A stretch of 43,157 bases of DNA from Escherichia phage vB_EcoS_MM01: the sequence record MK373793.1. The stretch is one strand, 5' to 3'. Made by a program: the position numbers and the translations under genes. The notes under the pieces were generated by a model, which was given only the letters and a program-made list of their open reading frames with translations, searched no databases and had not been told where the DNA came from. Shown piece after piece: positions 1,049 through 43,117 of the stretch (within the stretch, counting starts at the first letter, position 1; each line of letters starts with the position of its first letter).

Positions 1049-1332
1049 TGAGTTTCAACTATGAGGAATATTTAAAAGAGGTTCATGACTCAATGACTGA
1101 AGAGCAGAAGGCCAATATCGCCAGAATCAAAAGAACCATTGATGAGAACAACAGAATGCTTGAAGCTGAATATAATAAAGCGAATCCTCGATACAATGGA
1201 AAGACGGTTGATGAGTATATCCTTAGTAATTGCGTTAACAAGCCGTGGCATGAAAAGCACACTCGCGCTGAATGGGAAGAAGCTATGGAGTTGTGGCAGC
1301 TAATGAAGAAGCTAAATAAACTGGTAAAATAG
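1048..1332 (+). CDS. hypothetical protein (94 aa)
   Basis: ORF track; ATGA overlap with upstream gene; stop TAG is part of junction motif A. Confidence 0.5.
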   Translation: MSFNYEEYLKEVHDSMTEEQKANIARIKRTIDENNRMLEAEYNKANPRYNGKTVDEYILSNCVNKPWHEKHTRAEWEEAMELWQLMKKLNKLVK

Positions 1333-1347
1333 CACTTTTTGTTAAAA
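1328..1347 (+). repeat. junction motif A copy (aatagcactttttgttaaaa)
   Basis: contains TAG stop of ORF 1048..1332; hairpin ctccc-agtga-gggag; motif B atcgaaacga at 1379-1388; ATG 1403. Confidence 0.6.
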
Positions 1348-1402
1348 CTCCAGTGAGGGAGTTTGGCATAATAGCTTTATCGAAACGAGAGAGGGATTCA
1401 AG

Positions 1403-2677: not shown

Positions 2678-2814
2678 TGGATAACTACGAATTACCAAGC
2701 CAGTGGGCTAAGAGAATGATGGATGGCGCTAAGACTGGCGAAGAGGCTATGCAGTACTTTGAACTGATGAATCTATGGAAGGAGCGGGAAGATAAAAATA
2801 GCACGAATAGCTAA
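2677..2814 (+). CDS. hypothetical protein (45 aa; C-terminus NSTNS encoded by motif A)
   Basis: internal ATG of track ORF 2608..2814 (track start is TTG); coupled to upstream stop. Confidence 0.4.
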   Translation: MDNYELPSQWAKRMMDGAKTGEEAMQYFELMNLWKEREDKNSTNS

Positions 2815-2816
2815 AA
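2797..2816 (+). repeat. junction motif A copy (aatagcacgaatagctaaaa)
   Basis: member of 13-copy family AATAGCAC-N4-TTG(C/T)TAAA; motif-B-like tatcaaaacaacgagag follows before ATG 2872. Confidence 0.6.
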
Positions 2817-2871
2817 GCATTCGCCAGGGACGGCATATAATTACCTTATCAAAACAACGAGAGATTGAGAG

Positions 2872-14819: not shown

Positions 14820-14839
14820 CATAGCACTTTTTGCTAAAG
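14820..14839 (+). repeat. junction motif A copy (catagcactttttgctaaag)
   Basis: motif A followed by motif B atcgaaacga at 14871-14880 and ATG 14898. Confidence 0.6.
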
Positions 14840-14897
14840 CATAAATCAAAACATACTGTATAGTTACTTCATCGAAACGAAATAAAGGAATTAAGAA

Positions 14898-15284
14898 ATG
14901 AAAGTAATCATCGCAATTATGGCAACCCTGTTACTTGCTGGTTGCAACACAGACAAGGTTAAGACACTTAATGTTGATCTGACCTCAAATGAATGCAAGA
15001 ACATCGTATACAGCGCGACTGTTAACAATGAATCATTTACTCGGCTTTCATTCAAGCACCCGGAACTTAAAGAAGCTGTTATGTATGTGTCCCACATTGA
15101 GTGCACGAAATCTGTTAACAATTTTACACGTGGTGTTGTAATTGAACGCACTACAACATTGGCAAAGGTATCAAAGCCTAGTGACGCCTCAATTGAGATG
15201 GTTTATACTAAGCTATACAATTTAGAAGGTTTCGCTAAGGAAGTTGGCGAGAAGCTGGCTTACTCACGCGTTGTTATAAAATAA
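14898..15284 (+). CDS. lipoprotein (moron in tail module)
   Basis: N-terminal signal peptide with lipobox LLAGC; AT-rich; own motif A/B unit upstream. Confidence 0.7.
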   Translation: MKVIIAIMATLLLAGCNTDKVKTLNVDLTSNECKNIVYSATVNNESFTRLSFKHPELKEAVMYVSHIECTKSVNNFTRGVVIERTTTLAKVSKPSDASIEMVYTKLYNLEGFAKEVGEKLAYSRVVIK

Positions 15285-15302
15285 AACAGAGGATAAAACG
15301 AG

Positions 15303-15617
15303 ATGGCAAAGTTCAAACTTTCACTGGCAGCACTCCCTGACTTCAAGCTACCAGTAAAATTTAAGCTGGCTAACGACCAGGAAGTAGAAGTTATCTTTAC
15401 TGTCAAGCACAAGAAGACTTCTGAGCTTCAGGAGCTTTTACAGAAAGAAGAATTAAGCACTAAAGAACTAATCACGGCAATCGCATCTGATTGGGACCTT
15501 GAGGAAGAATTTAACGAAGATAACGTAAACGAGTTCGCAGACCTATTCCCTGCCTCAACGGTTGCGCTGACTACCGCTTATATGCAGGCGCTTGCTGGTC
15601 AGCGAGTAAAAAACTAA
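15303..15617 (+). CDS. tail assembly chaperone (lambda gpG-like)
   Basis: 104-aa ORF immediately upstream of tape measure gene; ends in slippery heptamer. Confidence 0.6.
   Translation: MAKFKLSLAALPDFKLPVKFKLANDQEVEVIFTVKHKKTSELQELLQKEELSTKELITAIASDWDLEEEFNEDNVNEFADLFPASTVALTTAYMQALAGQRVKN
15608..15614 (+). promoter_or_regulatory. -1 programmed ribosomal frameshift slippery site A_AAA_AAC
   Basis: heptamer AAAAAAC spans the last two sense codons of the G-like ORF; the -1 frame is open from 15614 into ORF 15626..15937. Confidence 0.55.
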
Positions 15618-15625
15618 AACGAGCG

Positions 15626-15937
15626 GTGTATCTACAGTACCAGTCAGAGCCAACTGATGCCGAACTGGAAGCTATTGGGATGCGCCGCTCTGATTACGAA
15701 GACGAAGAGCCTGAAGTTTTAAACTTCGACGAAAACATGATGAAAGCGTGGGACATTTATTGTTCAATGGCTACGCAGTGGAGAGTTGGAGCTAACGGAG
15801 CTACAGGGCTTGATTACAACGTGCTAAATTTCCTCTTTAGAGTGTATAATGTTTCTGAAGAAGAATTGGTGCTCAGCGATTTACGCATCCTTGAAGCTAA
15901 GGCTCTTGAGATGATGGATAACCTGAGAAAAAAATAA
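15626..15937 (+). CDS. frameshift extension of tail chaperone (gpT-like part of G-T fusion)
   Basis: -1 frame ORF contiguous with slippery site; conserved G/GT architecture upstream of tape measure. Confidence 0.55.
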   Translation: MYLQYQSEPTDAELEAIGMRRSDYEDEEPEVLNFDENMMKAWDIYCSMATQWRVGANGATGLDYNVLNFLFRVYNVSEEELVLSDLRILEAKALEMMDNLRKK

Positions 15938-15957
15938 CCCGCTTCGGCGGGTTTTCT
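15937..15957 (+). terminator. rho-independent terminator (leaky)
   Basis: cccgc-ttcg-gcggg hairpin plus TTTTCT. Confidence 0.5.
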
Positions 15958-15972
15958 ATTATGGAGGCTTAG

Positions 15973-18741
15973 ATGGCAACAAATGAATTAGCCGGAATCA
16001 CACTAGCCGTAGATGTCTCGCAGGTAGACAGGGGAACGCAGTCACTACAGAAGTTTAGGCAGGCTAACCAACAGGCCGCTTCCGGCATTAGTGAATTCGT
16101 CAACGCTGAGCAGGTTGCTAAAAACCAGGCGAGAGATACCGCGCGAGCACTTGCTGAGCAACAGGCCTCACTGGCTAAGCTGCAAACAGCCATTGATCCA
16201 ACCGCGGCAAAGTTCCGTAAACTCCAAGAGGCGGCGGTAGGTCTTGATAAGGCGTTCGCGGCTGGCGTAGTTCCTGATGAGGAGTTTTTCCGATTAGGTG
16301 AGGCGCTTGAAACGCAGAATGCAAAGCTAGCTCGCTCACGTGCGGCATTAACCGAAGAGGGTAGAGCGGCAGCGCAGGAAGCAAAGGATAAGTCAAAGGC
16401 AAAGGCTGAGGCAGATAGATTCATTGCATCACTGCAACGCCAGGCTCAAGCTGCAACATTGACGCGCGAGGAATATCTTAAGCTACAGGCGGCCCAGCTT
16501 GGCGTATCAGCGCAGGCTACACCATTAATTAACCAGATTGGCACTGCAACCCAGAGAACCGTTGAGAATCTTGGCAGGCAAGCCGCAGCATTCCAGAAGT
16601 CCGGTCTAAGCGCTGGTCAGTACAAGAATGCCATTAGTCAGCTACCAGCGCAGATTACTGACATTGGGACTTCATTGGCTGGCGGTATTCCTATCTGGTT
16701 AATTGCAATACAGCAGGGTGGTCAGATTAAGGATAGTTTCGGCGGCATCGCCAATACGGCGCGATTCCTGCTTTCTTACCTTACGCCACTAACCGCCGCC
16801 GCCGGTCTTCTTGGTGCTGGTTTCGCTTATGCAGCTGTTAGCATATACAAAAGCGAGGCCGCAATAAAGGAAGCGAGAAAGGCTATTGAGGATACACTTG
16901 GAGTTACAGGTGAATCCGCAAGAAAGCTAAGCATTAGTATTGCAAGGATCGCCGAGGCTTCAGACAAGACAGCTGAGGATATTACAAAGGCGTTCGTTTC
17001 AACAAGAGACGGAGCTCAGGAAGCAATCCTGAAACTCATTGATGTTGGTGTTAGCTACGAAGATGCAAGGGAGCTTGTTGAGAGATACAAAGACTCTTCA
17101 AACTTCACTCAGGTTAACGCTGAGATTGAAAAACACAGACTTGAAGCCGCAAAGATTAAAGATAGCTGGTTCGAGAACGCTAAGGCAGTTAGCTACTACA
17201 ATGATGTTGCGGTGCAAGGTCTAGTTAATTCGCCACTAACAAACGTTGCGGCAAGAAACAGCGCTGCAATTCAGGAGTTCGCAAGCCTTCTCGAGCAAGA
17301 TGTAAACAAAGCTCTAATTGATGGGAATAGATACGTTGCTGAGCAGGTTGATTTAATTGGTAAAGAGTACCTTGCACTTGACCGCGTGGCTGGTGCGGAG
17401 AAATCCCTTGCCGATGCAAGAAAGCAAGCTGCGGCTATTGCAAGAAGCGGTAATGCTGAAGCCATAGCTCAGGCTAATAGAGTAATTCAGCTTCGCCAGC
17501 GTGAACTTGATGAAGCCAAGAAGGCCGAAGCAGAGAGAAATAAGCCAGCCAAAACCAAAGCACCAAAGGAAGCCAGAGACCTTACCATAAATTACGAGTC
17601 AGGAGTTCTTGCGCTGGAGGCTCAATTAAGGCTGCTTAAGGATGTTGGGGGCCAGACAAAGGCGATAAGTACTGAGCGGAGGAAGCTACTTGAGGAAGAG
17701 GCTAAGTTTGCAATCCTTGAGGAGCGTCAGGCTGCTGGGACAATCGGCAGAGAGCAAGCAAGGCTTCTTCTTGAGAAAGATAAAGTTCTCGAGTTAGCCA
17801 GACAGAAGGCAGAGTTAGGCGATCAGATTGTTTTGCAGGAGAGAGCCAATAAGTTAGCCGAAGACAATAGGAAGAAGACTCTTCAGATTAACAACGAGGC
17901 AAATAACATTGATTTGGGTGCTGGTTTGTCATCTCGTGAACAGCAGAGGGCGAGAGAAATCCAGGCGCTTCAGTCCAATCAGGTTAATGCTGGCGGCGCT
18001 ATTGATGACGTAGATTTTACACAACTTCTAGAAGCAAGGCGTAACTTTTATGCTCAGGAAGATGCGCTACGTGAAAACTGGCTTGCTGGCGTGAATCAAT
18101 CCTTTGCCAATTGGGCTGAGAGCGCGACGGATGCCTTCTCAATTGCTGGAAGTTTAACCACAACCGTATTTGAGGGCATTACAGACCAGATTACCAACCT
18201 TGTAACCACTGGCGAAACAAACTTCAGGGAGTTTACTGTTAGCATCCTTAAGCAGATTGCTAAGATTGCAACCCAACTTCTTATTGTTAAGGCTATTGAG
18301 TCTAGCTTGAGTAGCTTTGGTGGTACTGGTGGCGCGATTGGCTCTATAGCATCTGCGATTGGTGGTGGATTTGCTAATGGTGGTTACACTGGCAGTGGCG
18401 GGAAATATCAACCAGCAGGCACGGTTCACAAAGGCGAGTTTGTATTCACAAAAGAAGCAACAAGCCGCATTGGTGTTAAAAACCTTTATGCACTAATGAA
18501 AGGCTATGCAAATGGCGGCGCTGTTGGTGGCTCTTCAGGATATGCAAATGGCGGCTTGGTTTCTGGTGGTTCAGATGTTAATGTTAGCGGCATTACTGTT
18601 AACGTTAATGGTGGAATTGGAAGCGACCCAGAACAGGCCAAGGCGCTGCAAAATGGCGTCAAGGCAATTGTAGCTGAAGAGATTTCTCAGTCCTTCCAGC
18701 AGGGTGGCCGTGCTTATCAGTACCTTAGAGGTTTTAACTAA
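15973..18741 (+). CDS. tail tape measure protein
   Basis: 922 aa, long Ala/Gln/Lys-rich helical region, Gly-rich C-terminus, position after G/GT. Confidence 0.8.
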   Translation: MATNELAGITLAVDVSQVDRGTQSLQKFRQANQQAASGISEFVNAEQVAKNQARDTARALAEQQASLAKLQTAIDPTAAKFRKLQEAAVGLDKAFAAGVVPDEEFFRLGEALETQNAKLARSRAALTEEGRAAAQEAKDKSKAKAEADRFIASLQRQAQAATLTREEYLKLQAAQLGVSAQATPLINQIGTATQRTVENLGRQAAAFQKSGLSAGQYKNAISQLPAQITDIGTSLAGGIPIWLIAIQQGGQIKDSFGGIANTARFLLSYLTPLTAAAGLLGAGFAYAAVSIYKSEAAIKEARKAIEDTLGVTGESARKLSISIARIAEASDKTAEDITKAFVSTRDGAQEAILKLIDVGVSYEDARELVERYKDSSNFTQVNAEIEKHRLEAAKIKDSWFENAKAVSYYNDVAVQGLVNSPLTNVAARNSAAIQEFASLLEQDVNKALIDGNRYVAEQVDLIGKEYLALDRVAGAEKSLADARKQAAAIARSGNAEAIAQANRVIQLRQRELDEAKKAEAERNKPAKTKAPKEARDLTINYESGVLALEAQLRLLKDVGGQTKAISTERRKLLEEEAKFAILEERQAAGTIGREQARLLLEKDKVLELARQKAELGDQIVLQERANKLAEDNRKKTLQINNEANNIDLGAGLSSREQQRAREIQALQSNQVNAGGAIDDVDFTQLLEARRNFYAQEDALRENWLAGVNQSFANWAESATDAFSIAGSLTTTVFEGITDQITNLVTTGETNFREFTVSILKQIAKIATQLLIVKAIESSLSSFGGTGGAIGSIASAIGGGFANGGYTGSGGKYQPAGTVHKGEFVFTKEATSRIGVKNLYALMKGYANGGAVGGSSGYANGGLVSGGSDVNVSGITVNVNGGIGSDPEQAKALQNGVKAIVAEEISQSFQQGGRAYQYLRGFN

Positions 18742-18771: not shown

Positions 18772-19122
18772 ATGGCTATTGATACATTTAATTACTGCAC
18801 TCAAATCCAGAATGGGGGCGGTTCATTCTCTAACACAAACAACGTGCGAATTGTTAGCTTCGGGAATGGTTTCGAGCAAAGAGGAACTGGGGGCTATCGA
18901 AGCAATAAGCGCAGCTACCAGATGACCTATACAAACAAGAACTGGCGTGAGGTTATGGATTTCTGTTTCAATCACATCATCACACCATTCTTCTGGAAAA
19001 CACCGCAAGGCGATACTTCTATGTTTGTTATTCAGCAGGATAGCATTTCAGTTACGCCATTAAGTAGCGAAGTTCAAACTGTAAACATGCAATTCGTGGA
19101 AGTCTTTAGCTCAATGCGTTAA
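18772..19122 (+). CDS. minor tail protein (lambda gpM-like)
   Basis: 116 aa directly after tape measure; first of M-L-K-I-J order. Confidence 0.65.
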   Translation: MAIDTFNYCTQIQNGGGSFSNTNNVRIVSFGNGFEQRGTGGYRSNKRSYQMTYTNKNWREVMDFCFNHIITPFFWKTPQGDTSMFVIQQDSISVTPLSSEVQTVNMQFVEVFSSMR

Positions 19123-26616: not shown

Positions 26617-26681
26617 TTTTGAATCCTTAGTAAGTATTTTTCGTTTCGATGGAGTAATAGTACCGCATCCTTGCGGATTGT

Positions 26682-26701
26682 CTTTAGCAATTCGTGCTAT
26701 T
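26682..26701 (-). repeat. junction motif A copy (aatagcacgaattgctaaag on minus strand)
   Basis: supplies stop codon of upstream methyltransferase-like ORF; motif B at 26641-26650. Confidence 0.6.
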
Positions 26702-27866: not shown

Positions 27867-27885
27867 ATAGCACGAATTGCTAAAA
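27866..27885 (+). repeat. junction motif A copy (aatagcacgaattgctaaaa)
   Basis: starts in the TAA stop of the exonuclease; motif-B variant catcaacaacgaacgagg precedes Erf ATG. Confidence 0.6.
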
Positions 27886-27939
27886 CAAAAAGGGATAGCT
27901 GAGGTATAGTTATCCCATCAACAACGAACGAGGTTAAAG

Positions 27940-29059: not shown

Positions 29060-29085
29060 TAAAGCCCCTTTCGGGGCTTTTTTTA
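29060..29085. terminator. bidirectional rho-independent terminator
   Basis: agcccc-tttc-ggggct hairpin with A run before and T run after, between convergent ssb and tail fibre genes. Confidence 0.6.
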
Positions 29086-30603
29086 TCACATATTTACACG
29101 AACGGAAACAAAAGAATCTTTTGGTATGTCTATTGGGTCACCATCACTATATCCATCAATCTTGTTTGATGCGAAAGCTGGAGAGACTTCATGAACTCTG
29201 TGGTATGTCTTTAATTTTATTGACCCGTCCTCATTAACAGAGTAATCAATCCATATTCTTGGTTGCTTGTTTATGTCAACTGGAACCTCAAAGCCTCCAT
29301 CAACACCACCCCAGGCGGCGTCGGAGTTAAGGCCTGTGCATCCAGATATCAAATAAACACCTTCAGAAATCCTCTCAACCTCACACCCCTCTGCTTCTGA
29401 GCTAATTTCAAAACTACCATCACCAAAAACCTTAACTATTGGTGAGGCTATCTTAATAAATCCATTTGAGTCGACCGTTGTATTTAAATCTCTTACGAAA
29501 AAATCCCTCCAGTCTGTTAGTCTAGCTGGATTATCGAATCTCTGCCTAAATCTGGGTGCGCCCTCTGTTATTGTTGAGAATCCAATTTGACTGTAATTAC
29601 CTGAAAGACCATTCTCTGCTATTGTCATTACCTCAGCGTAAGGGTATGGAGCGCCATTACCTCCCGGATAAGGTGATGAGTCTGAGGAGTAAAAACCAAT
29701 GCCACTCCTCATTGGCGTCGATCCATAAGCCACCGTTGCTGGATGCTTTGTATACATAGAGTTGATGTTATTTGATGCTTCAACATCTGTTGTAGCCCCA
29801 GTTCCACCACTGATTAAAGGTAAGGCAATTCTTTCTTGGGATGGATTGTAAAAGTAACCCCAGTCGGCCTCCCCAACGAAAAATTTATAATTACCACTAC
29901 CAGAGTCGACGTATGTTGTTTCCTGGCCCTGTTCAAACCTTGAAACTAAATTATTAACCTCTGCTTTTGAATAAACCTCAATATTTGTCCTTGCTAGTGG
30001 TTTGTCTAAGATATCCGATAAAGCCCTGTCAACTCTTAGGAGGTTTGATGCATTAACAGATGCCGCGCTATCAGCTGCCTCTGCTGCTGAAGCTGCTGCT
30101 GCATTACTGTCAGATAATGCACTTGCTGCGCTTGCAGCTGCTGCATCTTTATCGGCAGAAACAATAGCCCTATCAGCTGAAACCTGGGCAGCATCAGTAG
30201 CTACTTGCTGAAATTGAGCGTTTACTGTATTTATGCTTTGCTGAAATTCATCAGCATCAAAGTCATTAAAAGCATCTACAGCGGATGCAACTTCAGTTTC
30301 ACGTGACTGATAGTAACGAAGGGTTTCTGCAACATCCTGAGCCAAACCCTGAACAGTAATTCCATCGTGAGCAAGAATCGCGTAACCAGTGCCAGCCGGA
30401 ACAGTTTCAGAATTAGGGTTATAAACATTAATCTGCGTATCGCTGATAATCTCTGAGATGGTGTAAATTTTTACTGGTTCAGTTTTAAATACAATGGTGG
30501 CGCCTACGCGAATCAGTGTAAGAGGCGCCTTCCATGATGTCCCTACGCCAGTAACCTCGCCATTTGCAGCTAGTGAAGCTGTTCCTAAGTCATAAATTGC
30601 CAT
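29086..30603 (-). CDS. tail fibre protein (putative)
   Basis: 505 aa; Ala/Ser-rich central segment and Gly/Ser-rich C-terminal domain; assignment by composition. Confidence 0.45.
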   Translation of the reverse strand: MAIYDLGTASLAANGEVTGVGTSWKAPLTLIRVGATIVFKTEPVKIYTISEIISDTQINVYNPNSETVPAGTGYAILAHDGITVQGLAQDVAETLRYYQSRETEVASAVDAFNDFDADEFQQSINTVNAQFQQVATDAAQVSADRAIVSADKDAAAASAASALSDSNAAAASAAEAADSAASVNASNLLRVDRALSDILDKPLARTNIEVYSKAEVNNLVSRFEQGQETTYVDSGSGNYKFFVGEADWGYFYNPSQERIALPLISGGTGATTDVEASNNINSMYTKHPATVAYGSTPMRSGIGFYSSDSSPYPGGNGAPYPYAEVMTIAENGLSGNYSQIGFSTITEGAPRFRQRFDNPARLTDWRDFFVRDLNTTVDSNGFIKIASPIVKVFGDGSFEISSEAEGCEVERISEGVYLISGCTGLNSDAAWGGVDGGFEVPVDINKQPRIWIDYSVNEDGSIKLKTYHRVHEVSPAFASNKIDGYSDGDPIDIPKDSFVSVRVNM

Positions 30604-30625
30604 TATGTAAAGCCCTCATTTTTAA

Positions 30626-30644
30626 AATAGCACATTTTGTTAAG
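30626..30644 (+). repeat. junction motif A copy, orphan (aatagcacattttgttaag)
   Basis: plus-oriented between two minus-strand genes; no motif B or plus-strand gene downstream. Confidence 0.5.
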
Positions 30645-30667
30645 TTGCATTGTATCATCTTTCAGGT

Positions 30668-30690
30668 ATAAAAAAACCTCCCGAAGGAGG
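30668..30690 (-). terminator. rho-independent terminator of minus-strand replication operon
   Basis: cctcc-cgaa-ggagg hairpin; A7 on plus strand equals T7 on minus. Confidence 0.6.
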
Positions 30691-31620
30691 TTAGCTATTC
30701 AATAAATCACTTGCCTTATATATCCGCTTCCTTACCCCTGACTTGAATGAGTGCTCATCATTAGGGATTACCACATCAATATTACGATCATCAGCAACGG
30801 CGAGTAAATCGAGAGAATGACGAGCGCATGCAATACGTAACTTGGAGTCTTTGAGCGCGTAAGCAACCATTTCCATGTTGTAACTGGAGTGGCAAACAAG
30901 TACACAGCGGTTCCCAGTAGCAATGTGAACGCGATAGCCGTCAATGAAATTATCGACAAGATAAGCGTACTCATCATCCTTAAAGGAACCAATAACAGCC
31001 ACAGACTGACGAGTATAATCTTTTGCAGCATAACTAACATCTCCTTCCTCATTGATAAACATTACATTACACATTTCTTCTGATATGCCGTCACTATAAG
31101 CCATAAAGCACGGGGCAGCATGAATTAATTCGCCGGACTTCGTCTTGCCAACATCAAACCCAAACTCGCTATAAATACCCTCGTATGTACTGAGTGGGGT
31201 TAACTCTACTCTTTCTGTCCTTTCCATTATCTCTAAGCATCTTTCATGGTCAATCTGGGCGCCCATTTTGTATGGTGATGTCCTTGATGCTCTTTTGTTT
31301 GCTTTTGCAACAATCTCAACAGGAACCAGATTTAACCAGTCACCAAGCGTATCTATTGTTTCGCTATAACTCATTCCTGAGCACTTCATGACCCAACCAA
31401 CACCAGAATCATTGCCGCACTGGTTGCATATTGCTGCACCGTTGCCTTTTTCCTGACCTAGCTCATCCGTGAATCGAAACCTATCACGACCTCCGCAGTT
31501 TGGGCATGGACCATGCTTCTTGCTAAGATTTTCTCTGGTCCATCCTAAATGAGACAGGTATAACTCACCCCACATCCCTTTCATTTTAGCTATCACTTCA
31601 TTTTTATCATGATGATTCAT
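30691..31620 (-). CDS. DNA primase (zinc-ribbon + TOPRIM-like, putative)
   Basis: CPNCGG...C..C zinc-binding cluster near N-terminus; ATG 31620 with GGAGG RBS inside track ORF. Confidence 0.5.
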   Translation of the reverse strand: MNHHDKNEVIAKMKGMWGELYLSHLGWTRENLSKKHGPCPNCGGRDRFRFTDELGQEKGNGAAICNQCGNDSGVGWVMKCSGMSYSETIDTLGDWLNLVPVEIVAKANKRASRTSPYKMGAQIDHERCLEIMERTERVELTPLSTYEGIYSEFGFDVGKTKSGELIHAAPCFMAYSDGISEEMCNVMFINEEGDVSYAAKDYTRQSVAVIGSFKDDEYAYLVDNFIDGYRVHIATGNRCVLVCHSSYNMEMVAYALKDSKLRIACARHSLDLLAVADDRNIDVVIPNDEHSFKSGVRKRIYKASDLLNS

Positions 31621-31675
31621 ATACACCTCCATAAACAATAAAGGCACTATACATAATGCACAGTGCCATTGCTTA

Positions 31676-32182
31676 TCAAATCGTGCTGTTTTGCTCTGAC
31701 TCTCTCTTTTTCTTATTCTCTTCCTTAATCTTGCGCCATGATCTAGCAGGTGGTTTTTTTGCTAAATCCTCCTTCTTAACAACTCTAAGCATTTCTCGAC
31801 GGTCGCAACGCAATGTTAGTGGCTTACCGTTGCTATCAAATCGCAGATCAGGACGAATGAAGCTAGCTCTATATCCTTCGCCTGTACGCTTGTACTTTCC
31901 GTGCAGCTTCTGCGCGCCTTTCGCTGAGATCATTCCGCGCTTACACCACTCAGAAACTACTGCATGAGTCACATTGGCGGCTTTTGCTAGCTTCGATTTA
32001 CCGCCGTAGAAGTTAAGAACTATCTCAAGCCTTGCGCGTAAACTTGCTCGCACTTCATCCTTCAAAGTGTAGTAGCCATAAGGTCGACTACGTTCTTTCT
32101 TATCTTCGCCTCGCTGGGTTCCGTTATTTCCATTTAATGTACGCTTGTCCACTTCACCAGTTGATTCCGCGATTCTCGTCAT
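31676..32182 (-). CDS. HTH DNA-binding protein (Cro/YdaS-like, putative regulator)
   Basis: GGKSKLAKAANVTHAVVSEWCKRGMIS helix-turn-helix-like segment; basic termini. Confidence 0.45.
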   Translation of the reverse strand: MTRIAESTGEVDKRTLNGNNGTQRGEDKKERSRPYGYYTLKDEVRASLRARLEIVLNFYGGKSKLAKAANVTHAVVSEWCKRGMISAKGAQKLHGKYKRTGEGYRASFIRPDLRFDSNGKPLTLRCDRREMLRVVKKEDLAKKPPARSWRKIKEENKKKRESEQNSTI

Positions 32183-32193
32183 TATTAATCTCC

Positions 32194-32213
32194 AATAGCA
32201 CTTTTTGTTAAAA
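32194..32213 (+). repeat. junction motif A copy (aatagcactttttgttaaaa)
   Basis: in divergent intergenic region 12 nt from HTH gene start and about 70 nt upstream of helicase ATG. Confidence 0.6.
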
Positions 32214-32282
32214 GTCGTTTTGATTTAGTGTTAGTATTGTACCCAACAAAACGCTACAACACAAATTAATAGGGCTTAACAA

Positions 32283-34278: not shown

Positions 34279-34698
34279 GTGAAGATTACAGATAAAGAAG
34301 ATTACATTGAGTTTTACCCAGGCGCTGTAAAGTCATGCCCAAAGGAGGATGACGAACAGATCTTTTGCTCTGATTGGGTTAAGTATCATTATCCGCAGAT
34401 TGTTTACTGGCATACAGTTAATGAAGGTATGAAATCAATTGGGTCAGCAAGGAAGGATGCAGCCAAGGGTTTGCTTAAGGGTGTATCAGATTGCTTATTC
34501 CTGATACCCGAATCGCTGCGTGGCAAGTACCCTTTCGGAGCTATAGAGTTAAAGAGAGCTGGCAAGACCCAGGCTAGTCCAGTCAGCGATGAACAAAGGT
34601 CTTTCCTTAAAAGCGTAAGAGAATCAGGCGGCTTCGCAGGTGTCGCATACGGGCGCGAAGGTTTTCTTGCAGCATTCAAAGAAATGATTTCAAAATAG
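34279..34698 (+). CDS. VRR-NUC domain nuclease (putative)
   Basis: 139 aa; PD-(D/E)xK-like DCLFL...GAIELK; GTG start coupled to helicase stop. Confidence 0.5.
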   Translation: MKITDKEDYIEFYPGAVKSCPKEDDEQIFCSDWVKYHYPQIVYWHTVNEGMKSIGSARKDAAKGLLKGVSDCLFLIPESLRGKYPFGAIELKRAGKTQASPVSDEQRSFLKSVRESGGFAGVAYGREGFLAAFKEMISK

Positions 34699-34713
34699 CA
34701 CTAATTGCTAAAG
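34694..34713 (+). repeat. junction motif A copy (aatagcactaattgctaaag)
   Basis: TAG stop of VRR-NUC gene lies within motif; motif B at 34745-34754; ATG 34777. Confidence 0.6.
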
Positions 34714-34776
34714 ACGTTTCGATGGGTTGGTGTATTATCTATTCATCGAAACGAAACACACAAAGAGAGAAAGAAA

Positions 34777-34971
34777 ATGGCTACTATCTTTACTGGTAAA
34801 ATCTACGAATCACGCAAGACTGGTTACGAATATGAATTGGTAATCACTGAAGAAGGTTATGTTCTTGATGATGGTGATGGTTACGCATTCGAAGTTAGCC
34901 CTAGCTATAAAGATGATTTAGAAACTGTTAAAAACGCATTTGGCGAGAAATTTGATGAGGTATCAGAATAA
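34777..34971 (+). CDS. hypothetical protein (64 aa)
   Basis: internal ATG of track ORF 34705, placed by motif B and RBS. Confidence 0.45.
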   Translation: MATIFTGKIYESRKTGYEYELVITEEGYVLDDGDGYAFEVSPSYKDDLETVKNAFGEKFDEVSE

Positions 34972-35891: not shown

Positions 35892-37028
35892 ATGGCAACT
35901 GCAAAAATTACCAACGAAGAGCTGCGCGAAGAGCTGGCGAACGGTATGACTAACAAAGCAATCGCAGAGAAGTACGGTATGAATATTCGCAATGTTGAGT
36001 TGCGTCGTAGTAAATTGGCAAAGAGTGGAGAATTGCACGGAAACCCAGGCATCAAAAAGCTAGTTCCTGACGGTTATATGGTTAAGGGAACATCAACGAT
36101 GATTGATGCCGAAGGTAACGAAAAGATTCGCTGGGTTAAAACATCCGTAGATAATGAGCGCCTTGAGGTTTTAATGGAGCAGGCTCGAGAGGCATTTTGC
36201 TCAGAGTTGCCAAAGGCTATTCCATCTGAATCACCGAATGTTAACTTTGATGATAACACACTTGCGATGTATCCAGTTTTTGATTTACACATTGGAGCAA
36301 TGGCACACAAACACGAGTGCGGCGAAAACTACGACACAGCAACAGCCGAGAAAGTAATGAATGGATTCTTTGATTACGCTGTTGATAAGGCGCCAAACTC
36401 TAAGAATGCTGTATTGGTATTGGGTGGCGATTTCCTGCATTACGATTCACTTGAGGCAAAAACACCAGCTTCAGGGCATATCTTAGATAGCGACAGTCGT
36501 TATGCAAAAATTGTTTATGTTGCAATCCGGTCAGTACGTCGTGCAATTTCTCGAATGATGGGGAAGCACCAGAATATCGACATTAAAGTTATAAGCGGAA
36601 ACCATGATGAAGCGGGAATGGTTTGGTTGCGTGCGGCGCTGGCTGCATTTTATGAAGATGAGCCGCGTGTAAGCGTTGACGTTAGCCCTGCCGCTATGAT
36701 GATGACCAGCTTTGGAAGCACGCTTATTGGTTATACTCATGGGCACCAGATGCGTAAAGCTGATACAAGACTGACTGTTATGGCAACTGATTTCCGTAAG
36801 TTGTTTGGGCAAAGTGAGTATGTTTATACACATAGTGGCCATTGGCACTCACAGAAAATTACAGAGACGAATCTTGGTATTGATGAAGTTCACGGCCAGC
36901 TAGGTAGCCCAGATGCGTACTCGGCAAATGGCGGCTGGCGCTCTCAGCGTCAAGCGGCAGTAATCGTTTATCATAAGGAATTTGGCGAGGTTGGTCGCTT
37001 CATCTGTCGCCCAAAAATGTTTAGCTAA
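35892..37028 (+). CDS. calcineurin-like metallophosphoesterase with N-terminal HTH-like domain
   Basis: motifs DLHIG, GGDFLHYD, GNHDE, GHWH in order; N-terminal TNKAIAEKYGMNIRNVELRR resembles an HTH. Confidence 0.65.
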   Translation: MATAKITNEELREELANGMTNKAIAEKYGMNIRNVELRRSKLAKSGELHGNPGIKKLVPDGYMVKGTSTMIDAEGNEKIRWVKTSVDNERLEVLMEQAREAFCSELPKAIPSESPNVNFDDNTLAMYPVFDLHIGAMAHKHECGENYDTATAEKVMNGFFDYAVDKAPNSKNAVLVLGGDFLHYDSLEAKTPASGHILDSDSRYAKIVYVAIRSVRRAISRMMGKHQNIDIKVISGNHDEAGMVWLRAALAAFYEDEPRVSVDVSPAAMMMTSFGSTLIGYTHGHQMRKADTRLTVMATDFRKLFGQSEYVYTHSGHWHSQKITETNLGIDEVHGQLGSPDAYSANGGWRSQRQAAVIVYHKEFGEVGRFICRPKMFS

Positions 37029-37046
37029 TAGCACTTTTTGTTAAAA
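37027..37046 (+). repeat. junction motif A copy (aatagcactttttgttaaaa)
   Basis: begins right after TAA stop; hairpin acccac-gaaa-gtgggt; motif B 37078-37087; ATG 37100. Confidence 0.6.
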
Positions 37047-37099
37047 CGATACCCACGAAAGTGGGTATTATTGTTTTATCGAAACGAGAGGAGATAGAA

Positions 37100-37594: not shown

Positions 37595-37858
37595 ATGACT
37601 AGAGAGAAATATAACAGAGAAATCATTGGCCTGAATGGCGAAACTGCAATCGTGGACGTATATCGAGTTCTTTCGGCTTTTAATGTGCAAAACCCAATGG
37701 CACAGCACGCAATCAAAAAGCTCCTTTGTGCAGGGTTAAGAGGCCACAAAGACTTAAACGAGGATGTTGATGACATTATCGATTCATTGCAGAAAATGAA
37801 AACCTTCTTAGGTCAGCAGCAAATAGCACAAATTGCTAAAGACAATAATCAAAAGTAA
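37595..37858 (+). CDS. hypothetical protein (87 aa)
   Basis: ORF track; embeds a motif A copy in its C-terminal codons. Confidence 0.45.
   Translation: MTREKYNREIIGLNGETAIVDVYRVLSAFNVQNPMAQHAIKKLLCAGLRGHKDLNEDVDDIIDSLQKMKTFLGQQQIAQIAKDNNQK
37822..37841 (+). repeat. junction motif A copy embedded in coding sequence (aatagcacaaattgctaaag)
   Basis: encodes QIAQIAK; motif B at 37873-37882 precedes next gene. Confidence 0.55.
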
Positions 37859-37892
37859 GTTAATATAACCACATCGAAACGAGATAAACCAA

Positions 37893-39578: not shown

Positions 39579-39641
39579 TTTTGATTTCCTTTTGTGTGTC
39601 TCTTTTCGATGAATTAAGAATAGCAAAAGCCCATGATGGGC

Positions 39642-39661
39642 TTTTAACAAAAAGTGCTATT
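39642..39661 (-). repeat. junction motif A copy (aatagcactttttgttaaaa on minus strand)
   Basis: follows TAA stop of upstream gene; hairpin gcccat-catgggc; motif-B variant catcgaaaaga. Confidence 0.6.
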
Positions 39662-41585: not shown

Positions 41586-41658
41586 CTTAATACTCCATCT
41601 CGTTAATATGCGGGCATTATATAACACCCGCTCAGATATGCTTTAACTTTTAGTGCTG

Positions 41659-42012
41659 TTATAGGTATTGCGCTTCGAATTTGTAAGTTTCGCAGAGCGT
41701 CTTAAATCCAACCTCTTCATCTCGATAAAGCTGCCAGGCATTGCCTTCTTTGTCATAAATGTAACCAGCATTCTGACCCAAACCAGAGTGCATATTCACC
41801 TGGAAGCGCTTACCCTCAGTGAAAACTTTAGCAACGCCGCTCTTGTGATTAACCTTTGTACAATACAGAGTCTTAGTTTTAATGTATTTTCCGCGCTCCG
41901 TAAGGTTCTGCCATTTGCCGTTAACCTTGATTTGTTCCACACCATCTTTAACGCGAGCTTTGAATAAATCATTGTCGCTTGAAATCCAGTTTTTACTAAT
42001 TGTAGTAGTCAT
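41659..42012 (-). CDS. hypothetical protein (117 aa)
   Basis: internal ATG of track ORF 41659..42039, coupled to upstream stop. Confidence 0.45.
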   Translation of the reverse strand: MTTTISKNWISSDNDLFKARVKDGVEQIKVNGKWQNLTERGKYIKTKTLYCTKVNHKSGVAKVFTEGKRFQVNMHSGLGQNAGYIYDKEGNAWQLYRDEEVGFKTLCETYKFEAQYL

Positions 42013-42176: not shown

Positions 42177-42227
42177 TTTTTATCTCCCGTCTCGATGAAA
42201 AGATAATACCGCATATCGCATAAATGC

Positions 42228-42247
42228 TTTTAGCAATTCGTGCTATT
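42228..42247 (-). repeat. junction motif A copy (aatagcacgaattgctaaaa on minus strand)
   Basis: encodes C-terminal NSTNC* of upstream small gene; motif-B variant catcgagacg at 42188-42197. Confidence 0.6.
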
Positions 42248-43050: not shown

Positions 43051-43097
43051 CTCCTCGTTGTTGATGTGTTAACTATAGCCACATAGATTCAATATGT

Positions 43098-43117
43098 CTT
43101 TAGCAAAAAGTGCTATT
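43098..43117 (-). repeat. junction motif A copy (aatagcactttttgctaaag on minus strand)
   Basis: motif-B variant catcaacaacgaggag lies between it and ATG 43050. Confidence 0.6.

Follow-up and report, generated by a model that had tools for sequence, protein, structure and literature searches.

In the 2024 re-annotation of phage TLS (PMC11447400), a direct repeat, aaATAGCACnnnTTGnTAAAA, was listed at 21 places, about 76 nucleotides before start codons. The repeat is intergenic, is also reported there from phages T1, Rtp and Rogue1, and was suggested to serve as stoperators, enhancer sites or UP elements. The stoperators of mycobacteriophage L5, to which the TLS authors drew the analogy, are many short, asymmetric intergenic sites, as are the sites described here. 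They act as orientation-dependent blocks inside the transcription units of a temperate phage and are independent of promoters. The marboxes of E. coli, bound by MarA, SoxS and Rob, are also described by the 20-mer consensus of Martin, and those of class II stand 18–19 bp from the -10 hexamer. In a recent account (PMC12052159), the marbox consensus is given as gcannwwntgnnaaa, with two mismatches or fewer as the criterion, and a class II marbox is a forward box overlapping the -35 position, with its centre between -36 and -55. Marboxes that overlap the core promoter, with the centre between -35 and +25, are known as repressing sites; pbpG is one case, and purA, hdeA and rob are others (cited in PMC12052159).

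The window analysed here is the whole stretch of 43,157 nucleotides from Escherichia phage vB_EcoS_MM01 (MK373793.1). Sequence comparison of the 29–33 kb region identifies a T1-like phage of the Drexlerviridae, near ACG-M12 and SU57; the primase, regulator and helicase genes are about 80–87% identical to those of the Braunvirinae ACG-M12, ECH1, SU57 and Veterinaerplatzvirus. The repeated box of the window, motif A of the first-pass annotation, is the published 21-nucleotide Drexlerviridae repeat aaATAGCACnnnTTGnTAAAA, with the same sequence and the same three spacer types (TTT, GAA and AAA) as in TLS. Thirteen copies of the core, AGCAC-N3-TTGnTAA, are present in the window, with 0.04 expected from shuffled sequences, and two degenerate copies, at 2798 on the plus strand and 41660 on the minus strand, bring the total to 15. 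All are intergenic or located at gene ends.

Fourteen of the 15 copies are followed on the same strand by 17–19 bp, a -10 hexamer of the type TAnnnT, a ribosome-binding site and an open reading frame. The spacing between box and -10 is 18 bp in ten of the 12 promoter copies with the strict core, 17 bp in one and 19 bp in one, and the two degenerate copies obey the same scheme. These fourteen elements are:

1329..1372, plus strand: canonical box promoter, box + 18 bp + CATAAT
2798..2841, plus strand: degenerate box promoter, ATAGCACGAATAGCTAAAAG + 18 bp + TATAAT
14821..14864, plus strand: canonical box promoter in the tail module, box + 18 bp + TATAGT
26657..26700, minus strand: canonical box promoter, box + 18 bp + TACTAT
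27867..27910, plus strand: canonical box promoter before the recombinase gene, box + 18 bp + TATAGT
31646..31689, minus strand: primase box promoter, ACAGCACGATTTGATAAGCA + 18 bp + TATAGT, within and just past the 3' end of the regulator gene
32195..32241, plus strand: helicase promoter, box at 32195–32214 + 17 bp + TAGTAT at 32232–32237
34695..34738, plus strand: canonical box promoter, box + 18 bp + TATTAT
37028..37071, plus strand: canonical box promoter, box + 18 bp + TATTAT, with a hairpin at 37048–37069 in the spacer
37823..37866, plus strand: canonical box promoter, box + 18 bp + TAATAT
39617..39660, minus strand: canonical box promoter, box + 18 bp + TATTCT, with a terminator-like hairpin in the spacer
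41616..41660, minus strand: degenerate box promoter, ACAGCACTAAAAGTTAAAG, then TATAAT
42203..42246, minus strand: canonical box promoter, box + 18 bp + TATTAT
43072..43116, minus strand: canonical box promoter, box + 19 bp + TATAGT

The consensus of the promoter boxes is ATAGCAC-N3-TTGnTAAA, located 17–19 bp 5' of the -10 and centred near -40/-41. All 14 point along the direction of transcription, about 76 nucleotides before the start codon, as the TLS repeat does. A second motif, (c)ATCGAAACGA or a variant of it (motif B), lies about 6 nucleotides past the -10 of the promoter copies, a position that makes it the predicted transcript start. The box core is an imperfect palindrome, TAGCA-N5-TG(C/T)TA. 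Copies with the strict core number 17 in T1, 13 in Webervirus cp3 and 11 in Veterinaerplatzvirus, and they agree with those of the window in their distance to the -10 and in the start region. No box is found in Salmonella phage PSH-1, a phage outside the Drexlerviridae with a 32% identical primase, which points to a box specific to the family. At the place in T1 that is orthologous to 14821..14864, the box is inverted.

Three simple interpretations of the box were rejected. The TTGCTA of the box is not an ordinary -35 hexamer, as its spacer to the -10 would be 22 bp. The conserved G and C positions and the interchangeable TTT, GAA and AAA centres are unlike the A/T tract of an UP element. The 17–19 bp lock between box and -10 in 14 of the 15 copies is a promoter architecture, not that of an L5-type stoperator; only the copies at the tail-fibre and regulator genes lie downstream of a promoter.

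The box closely resembles the marbox. Eleven boxes of the window match gcannwwntgnnaaa perfectly, with 1.08 expected. The promoter boxes are forward, centred near -40/-41 and have no accompanying -35 element; in orientation and position they fit the published class II definition, and RamA at micF is likewise positioned near -40/-41. The micF promoter of E. coli K-12, read from NC_000913.3, is ACAGCACTGAATGTCAAAAC + 18 bp + TAGAAT, so that its spacing is identical to that of the phage promoters and its box nearly the same. The Martin consensus and the class II spacing of 18–19 bp, quoted above as background, find their only backing here in this micF sequence and the published class II criteria. 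The marbox of mar, ATGCCACGTTTTGCTAAATC, is also close to the phage box. The phage box differs from the host marboxes in its stronger palindrome (TAGCA-N5-TGCTA) and its much lower degeneracy. By sequence, the phage box is indistinguishable from a consensus marbox and is a candidate site for MarA, SoxS or Rob. Our literature search retrieved no paper linking T1-like phages to the marbox or to MarA, SoxS or Rob.

A phage protein is the other candidate for the reader of the box. Between the primase and helicase genes lies the following gene:

31676..32182, minus strand: gene annotated 'transcriptional regulator' (168 amino acids), with a single Cro-like helix-turn-helix, conserved across the family

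Its sequence gives sub-threshold Pfam matches to the YdaS, P22_Cro and CI helix-turn-helix families. The AlphaFold model has a pLDDT of 87.7, and its best matches in the PDB, to Cro folds and those of the controller (C-) proteins of restriction-modification systems, are weak (headed by Xfaso-1, N15 and P22 Cro, all-alpha proteins with a single helix-turn-helix, over about 60 residues, with a best E of 0.012 and none at or below 0.001). The helicase -10, TAGTAT, overlaps the TACAAT of the regulator promoter (32241–32236, minus strand), the shared region being 32232–32241, and the helicase box is inverted with respect to the regulator gene, after the promoter of that gene and directly before its Shine-Dalgarno sequence. 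A box between promoter and Shine-Dalgarno sequence and a -10 shared with a divergent promoter are reminiscent of autoregulated Cro and C-protein circuits. A protein bound at the regulator/helicase box would be placed to help polymerase one way and hinder it the other way, and with the shared -10 a single bound protein could switch on one direction while blocking the opposite one. The same layout is present in T1, AHS24, phSE-2 and cp3, and in every lineage examined. In TLS, P57 and DR11 stand at this place, and only three promoters are consensus sigma-70 promoters, that of the regulator gene among them (PMC11447400); such a promoter fits an immediate-early activator and favours the regulator as the reader.

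Judging from the model, a dimer of the Cro-like regulator could read the palindromic box. However, the recognition helix, as predicted, differs from one family member to another (THAVVSE, SNQTVQG, TRQAVEE and NLKTVWG) while the box is invariant, and the asymmetric positions C7, T11 and A17 are retained even in inverted, non-promoter copies, both of which argue against the regulator as the reader; a symmetric dimer of the Cro type would not need those asymmetric positions to be kept. A phage-encoded activator of the MarA/SoxS type was rejected: no MarA or SoxS homologue with an E-value below 2 was found when six-frame open reading frames of at least 40 amino acids from the window were searched with phmmer, using MarA and SoxS as queries, and the annotated regulator is a single-helix-turn-helix, Cro-like protein. 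On balance, a host factor (MarA, SoxS or Rob) has a little under an even chance of being the reader of the box, as judged from its sequence, the phage Cro-like regulator is a possible reader with the odds somewhat against it, and some other protein is a rather unlikely one.

The fifteenth copy lies between two minus-strand genes, in an order on that strand of regulator (31676–32182), primase (30691–31632) and tail fibre (29086–30603). The elements of the locus are:

30691..31632, minus strand: DNA primase gene, with the Pfam domain Zn_Ribbon_Prim; annotated alike in relatives
30668..30692, minus strand: primase intrinsic terminator, with the stem AACCTCC/GGAGGTT starting at 30692 and ending at 30675, a UUCG loop and seven T's running to 30668
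30649..30657, minus strand: predicted extended -10 of the tail-fibre gene, TGATACAAT, TGaTACAAT, with the hexamer TACAAT at 30654–30649
30627..30646, plus strand: orphan box ATAGCACATTTTGTTAAGTT, 20 bp, of the marbox type, at about -4 to +16 of the predicted tail-fibre promoter on the minus strand
30613..30617, minus strand: tail-fibre Shine-Dalgarno sequence GAGGG, 9 nucleotides ahead of the ATG at 30603; relatives have GGAG there
29086..30603, minus strand: tail-fibre gene (505 amino acids), with the Pfam domain Phage_tail_C_2 (E = 1.3e-57); annotated as tail fiber in relatives

The primase gene probably starts at the ATG at 31632, not at the GTG at 31647; the former is preceded by the box-type promoter at 31689–31646 and by a Shine-Dalgarno sequence, GGAGG. 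In similarity searches the tail-fibre gene is barely covered in relatives, whereas the primase and helicase genes are. In T1-like phages, the tail-fibre gene stands alone behind a strong terminator, amid early replication genes. The SU57 paper suggested recombination at the tail-fibre locus and raised doubt as to whether the tail-fibre gene is transcribed.

The first-pass annotation had noticed the 19-mer AATAGCACATTTTGTTAAG at 30626–30644 of the plus strand and described it as the only copy of the motif with nothing to drive. In this it was right: the orphan alone is followed on its own strand by neither a -10 nor motif B nor a gene, the hexamer at canonical spacing being GGTATA, and it lies between the start of the tail-fibre gene (ATG at 30603, minus strand) and the stop of the primase gene (30691, minus strand). 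Nucleotides 30624–30644 read AAAATAGCACATTTTGTTAAG and keep the conserved positions of the repeat save for the last two A's; measured against gcannwwntgnnaaa, the box at 30627–30646 has one mismatch (A18 to G). Compared with the TLS repeat, the orphan is inverted relative to the adjoining gene and is not accompanied by a promoter core. It points away from the tail-fibre gene, the ATG of which is 23 nucleotides off and on the other strand. It also falls outside class II, with no TAnnnT hexamer at 17–19 bp on the plus strand.

The hairpin that follows has its stem at 30675–30692, 30 nucleotides past the motif. It had been called a bidirectional terminator, into which the plus-strand motif would fire. 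A terminator scan calls it on the minus strand only, where it folds at -10.5 kcal/mol and where the annotations of SU57 and AHS24 carry the orthologous primase terminator; on the plus strand, AGCTATTCAAT comes after the stem and a run of T's is missing. With no usable -10 at the 18-bp spacing and a hairpin that is not a plus-strand terminator, the proposed firing is not supported. A working plus-strand promoter, which would yield either a short RNA stopping at the hairpin or an antisense transcript of the primase 3' end, is accordingly very unlikely. The box is forward on the plus strand and a TATAAA is present 20 bp past it, but this hexamer has no final T and stems from the A run of the terminator, and the hexamers at 18–19 bp, GGTATA and GTATAA, do not conform to TAnnnT. 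The hexamer at canonical spacing is not conserved either: it is GGTATA in the window, TACCTG in T1, AGGCAC in NBD2 and GTCATA in Veterinaerplatzvirus. Motif B is missing, the plus strand has no T run after the hairpin, and no conserved RNA structure was found at the site. In T1, an inverted box at 18851 on the minus strand does have a TAAGAT at canonical spacing and faces the hairpin of a terminator, which leaves room for antisense box promoters at other sites.

A role of the inverted box at the RNA level in the tail-fibre leader, for example as a protective 5' hairpin made from the palindrome, was also rejected: the UAACA...UGCUA of the window has a central mismatch, and the leader folds no better than shuffled sequences (-2.5 kcal/mol, z = +0.84).

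On the minus strand, the intergenic region reads in this order: the primase stop and terminator at 30692–30668, TGaTACAAT at 30657–30649, a gap of 2 bp, the inverted box at 30646–30627, GAGGG and the ATG at 30603. Transcription of the tail-fibre gene is predicted to start near 30642. The arrangement was compared among related loci. A search of viral contigs gave seven, and the wider comparison was made from GenBank phage records; the loci compared number 19, from Braunvirinae (n = 9) and other Drexlerviridae. An extended -10, TGnTAnnAT, is located directly past the primase terminator in 16 of the 19. It is TGnTACAAT in the Braunvirinae, NBD2 and AHS24, TGcTATAAT in BHUENT9, TGcTATTAT in cp3 and grams, and TTGCAA-17-TGaTAAAAT in T1 and CLB_P3, the TTGCAA of T1 being an additional -35. 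In the three Tlsvirus loci, TTGCAT-17-CATAAT takes the place of the extended -10.

The inverted box is present at 15 of the 19 loci, always in the same orientation and 2–10 bp past the -10: those of the Braunvirinae, Tunavirus T1 and CLB_P3, Vilniusvirus NBD2, BHUENT9, and Tlsvirus phSE-2 and Mishu. The distance is 2–3 bp in the Braunvirinae, NBD2, T1 and CLB_P3, 8 bp in BHUENT9, and 10 bp in phSE-2 and Mishu. The box is absent from AHS24 (Rogunavirus), cp3 (Webervirus), grams (Hanrivervirus) and SP-126, all four of which keep the -10, suggesting that the box is modulatory and not required for expression. In cp3, three genes, all on the primase strand, are inserted between the primase and tail-fibre genes. 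Table S1 of the TLS re-annotation (PMC11447400) lists no repeat at the tail-fibre position. The intergenic region is about 85–90% conserved among the Braunvirinae, so these nine loci add little independent evidence, and the independent weight rests on T1 and CLB_P3, NBD2, BHUENT9 and the two Tlsvirus loci. The flanking intergenic sequence differs between the groups that bear the box; outside the Braunvirinae, what the loci have in common is just the -10 and the box, which keeps 19–20 of its 20 positions. As far as these alignments can tell, the conserved unit is the predicted tail-fibre promoter, with the box an add-on over the predicted start site in several lineages.

The same comparison bears on the origin of the orphan. 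It had been proposed to be the vestige of a lost plus-strand cassette, and a comparison with related genomes for a gene at 30626–30690 had been suggested. In that comparison, none of the relatives at the 19 loci has a plus-strand gene here, and the inverted box is kept in the same place and orientation in lineages whose primases are only about 44–50% identical and whose intergenic sequences differ, which contradicts the lost cassette. A related possibility is that the box has no regulatory function here and is either left over from an ancestral copy of the promoter or a conserved linker between modules that promotes recombination and the exchange of tail-fibre genes. Tail-fibre genes are mosaic, the recombination suggested in the SU57 paper is at this very locus, T1 has boxes with no promoter core at 121 and 15087 on the minus strand, the tail-module box is inverted in T1 and forward in the window, indicating that boxes get rearranged, and four lineages lack the tail-fibre box. 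We nevertheless consider such a relic or linker unlikely. The -10 and the nearly invariant box are shared outside the Braunvirinae while the flanks differ, the orientation of the box and its placement past the -10 are constant with no plus-strand gene in the relatives, and 20 bp of identity is short for homologous recombination. On the sequence comparison, then, we take the orphan to be a real, conserved, inverted copy of the promoter box of the family, and neither a plus-strand promoter nor a relic.

The reading we prefer, to which we give a probability of about 45%, is that the orphan is an operator, through which the activator of the other promoters would exert negative or tuning control on the tail-fibre promoter. 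At the 14 forward sites, a class II activator bound to the box near -41 would recruit sigma-70 RNA polymerase to promoters that have no -35 element. The extended -10 of the tail-fibre gene would be independent of the activator, and would allow transcription to restart just past the primase terminator. A protein on the orphan box would cover about -4 to +16 and exclude RNA polymerase, and the activator of the other promoters would thereby hold down or time the tail-fibre gene. The box starts 2 bp past the conserved TGaTACAAT, and its overlap with the start region depends on the predicted start site. The operator reading is strengthened by the regulator gene, the layout of which is similar: a sigma-70 promoter, an inverted box and a Shine-Dalgarno sequence. 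It also resembles the repressed marbox promoters of the host, where an activator site over the core promoter turns the activator into a repressor, with the difference that the pbpG marbox overlaps the spacer between -35 and -10, while the orphan is downstream of the -10. The G at the third A of the AAA element, in the orphan and in several orthologues, may make for a weaker site, and with four lineages lacking the tail-fibre box its contribution may be small. It also speaks against an operator that repression of a structural gene by the driver of the other promoters would be an unexpected design. From the sequence and its comparison we infer the use of the -10, the position of the start, the binding of the box, the identity of its binder and the negative effect; our literature search on the T1-like phage family retrieved no transcript, start-site, transcriptome or binding data.

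The first-pass annotation had also offered the idea that the motif works in either orientation for the tail-fibre gene. This came closest of its proposals, in that the motif would serve the tail-fibre gene from the opposite orientation, and it also fits a rival to repression. The conserved extended -10 next to the box, the near-palindrome and the match to the marbox consensus had been overlooked there. In the rival reading, the inverted box would activate the tail-fibre promoter, by bending or distorting DNA near the -10 or by holding the factor and polymerase nearby. Most lineages have no good -35 for the tail-fibre gene, GTTTTT or TTTTTT from the T run of the terminator taking its place, only 2 bp separate the box from the -10 in the window, and at flgBP2 MarA is reported to activate through a distortion of the base pairing beside its site (PMC12781870). 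The flgB marbox, however, is upstream of the -10, at -16 to -30, whereas the phage box is downstream, over the predicted start site and over double-stranded DNA that has to pass into the cleft of the polymerase. Lineages differ in the gap between the -10 and the box (2–10 bp), which speaks against a precise contact; the promoter is retained without the box in four of them, and an extended -10 needs no activator. Activation from the inverted box is therefore improbable.

Rob was first isolated as a protein that binds oriC, and the orphan lies inside the replication module, near the primase and helicase genes; T1 has a non-promoter box near its genome end, at 121 on the minus strand. The box might on these grounds be a non-transcriptional site, a landing pad for a host Rob-like protein or a phage protein in replication or genome organisation. 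We rate this as highly improbable: there is no sign of an origin, the TLS authors found no iterons (PMC11447400), and a constant place between the -10 and the Shine-Dalgarno sequence of one gene is better explained by control of that gene, as in the operator reading.

The type of element is known, the repeat having been published and operators being ordinary. The palindromic core, the fixed 18-bp link to the -10, the marbox identity and the operator layout at the tail-fibre gene are absent from the TLS re-annotation (PMC11447400), and neither the tail-fibre promoter layout nor the match of the repeat to a class II marbox was found in the literature searched. The repeat, familiar since the genomes of T1 and TLS were published, may now be read, from its sequence context, as a promoter element 18 bp from the -10; an annotation puzzle becomes a question open to simple experiments. 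The predicted extended -10 and the inverted box likewise give a testable account of the expression and control of the tail fibre. In a more far-reaching reading, suggested by the likeness of the boxes and in our view doubtful, T1-like phages would run nearly their whole transcription programme on MarA, SoxS and Rob, and the inverted tail-fibre copy would be a repressing marbox. If this is true, the function of the T1/TLS repeat would be solved and a virulent phage would be seen to borrow a host activator regulon wholesale. About 15 class II marbox promoters per genome would tie phage development to bile, oxidative and antibiotic stress, and the repressing marbox would set the level or timing of the receptor-binding fibre. 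Promoters driven by host stress regulators would also have a bearing on phage therapy and on the persistence of T1-type phages as laboratory contaminants.

The box of the T1-like phages, a published direct repeat of 21 nt, corresponds in its family-wide promoter form to the consensus of the E. coli marbox, the binding site of MarA, SoxS and Rob. The 14 promoter-type boxes in the window are copies of this form (for example at 37028-37071). The distance of 18 bp between these boxes and the -10 element is the same as in a host class II promoter, that of E. coli micF. In the searchable literature, no paper linking the T1-like promoter box to the marbox was found.

Within the 18 bp that separate the box from the -10 element there is often a G+C hairpin, the sequence of which differs from copy to copy:

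37048-37069, plus strand, spacer G+C hairpin
39624-39646, minus strand, spacer G+C hairpin
31643-31667, minus strand, spacer G+C hairpin
26665-26680, minus strand, spacer G+C hairpin

The spacer hairpin is also the terminator of the upstream gene, the stop codon of which overlaps the box, so that a terminator and a promoter are nested within about 45 bp.

Downstream of the -10 element, a second conserved sequence, motif B, (c)ATCGAAACGA, is located:

1379-1390, motif B
14871-14882, motif B
34745-34756, motif B
37078-37089, motif B
37873-37884, motif B
39599-39610, minus strand, motif B
26639-26650, minus strand, motif B

As motif B starts 6-7 nt past the -10 element in the window promoters, it is predicted to be the +1 position and the initial transcribed sequence. 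It is retained in promoters of T1, Webervirus and Braunvirinae. Many predicted transcripts have conserved first 10 nt, formed by motif B.

Beyond the tail-fibre gene, between the convergent SSB (plus strand) and tail-fibre (minus strand) genes, the following hairpin is present:

29061-29080, AAAGCCCC-TTTC-GGGGCTTT, terminator called on the plus strand

This hairpin may terminate both convergent units, and at the matching place the T1 annotation has a terminator serving both converging transcription units. In T1, the annotated ORF ST25 (47 amino acids, 34791-34934) is probably not a gene; it overlaps the promoter and box of the tail-fibre gene as well as the 5' end of that gene. Klebsiella phage cp3 (a Webervirus) carries an insertion of three genes (348, 218 and 156 amino acids; 15094-17951) between its primase gene and its tail-fibre gene, and the tail-fibre promoter there, TGcTATTAT, lacks a box. 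T1 contains three further boxes (121, 15087 and 18851, all minus strand), near the genome end, ahead of the major head gene and ahead of ST40, which have no promoter core or are inverted with respect to the genes next to them. The ST40 box has TAAGAT at canonical spacing and is directed into the major-tail-protein terminator, whereas the copy at the orthologous place in the window is a forward, functional-looking promoter (14821, plus strand).

The box-type promoter of the primase gene (31689-31646) lies partly inside the regulator gene, at its 3' end, and partly just past it. The probable start codon of the primase is ATG 31632 (Shine-Dalgarno sequence GGAGG), rather than GTG 31647 of the ORF list. 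The helicase (plus strand) and regulator (minus strand) promoters share one -10 region, in which TAGTAT and TACAAT overlap (32232-32241). Positions 32195-32264 are a bidirectional promoter with a box on one side only, a layout also present in T1, AHS24, phSE-2 and cp3.
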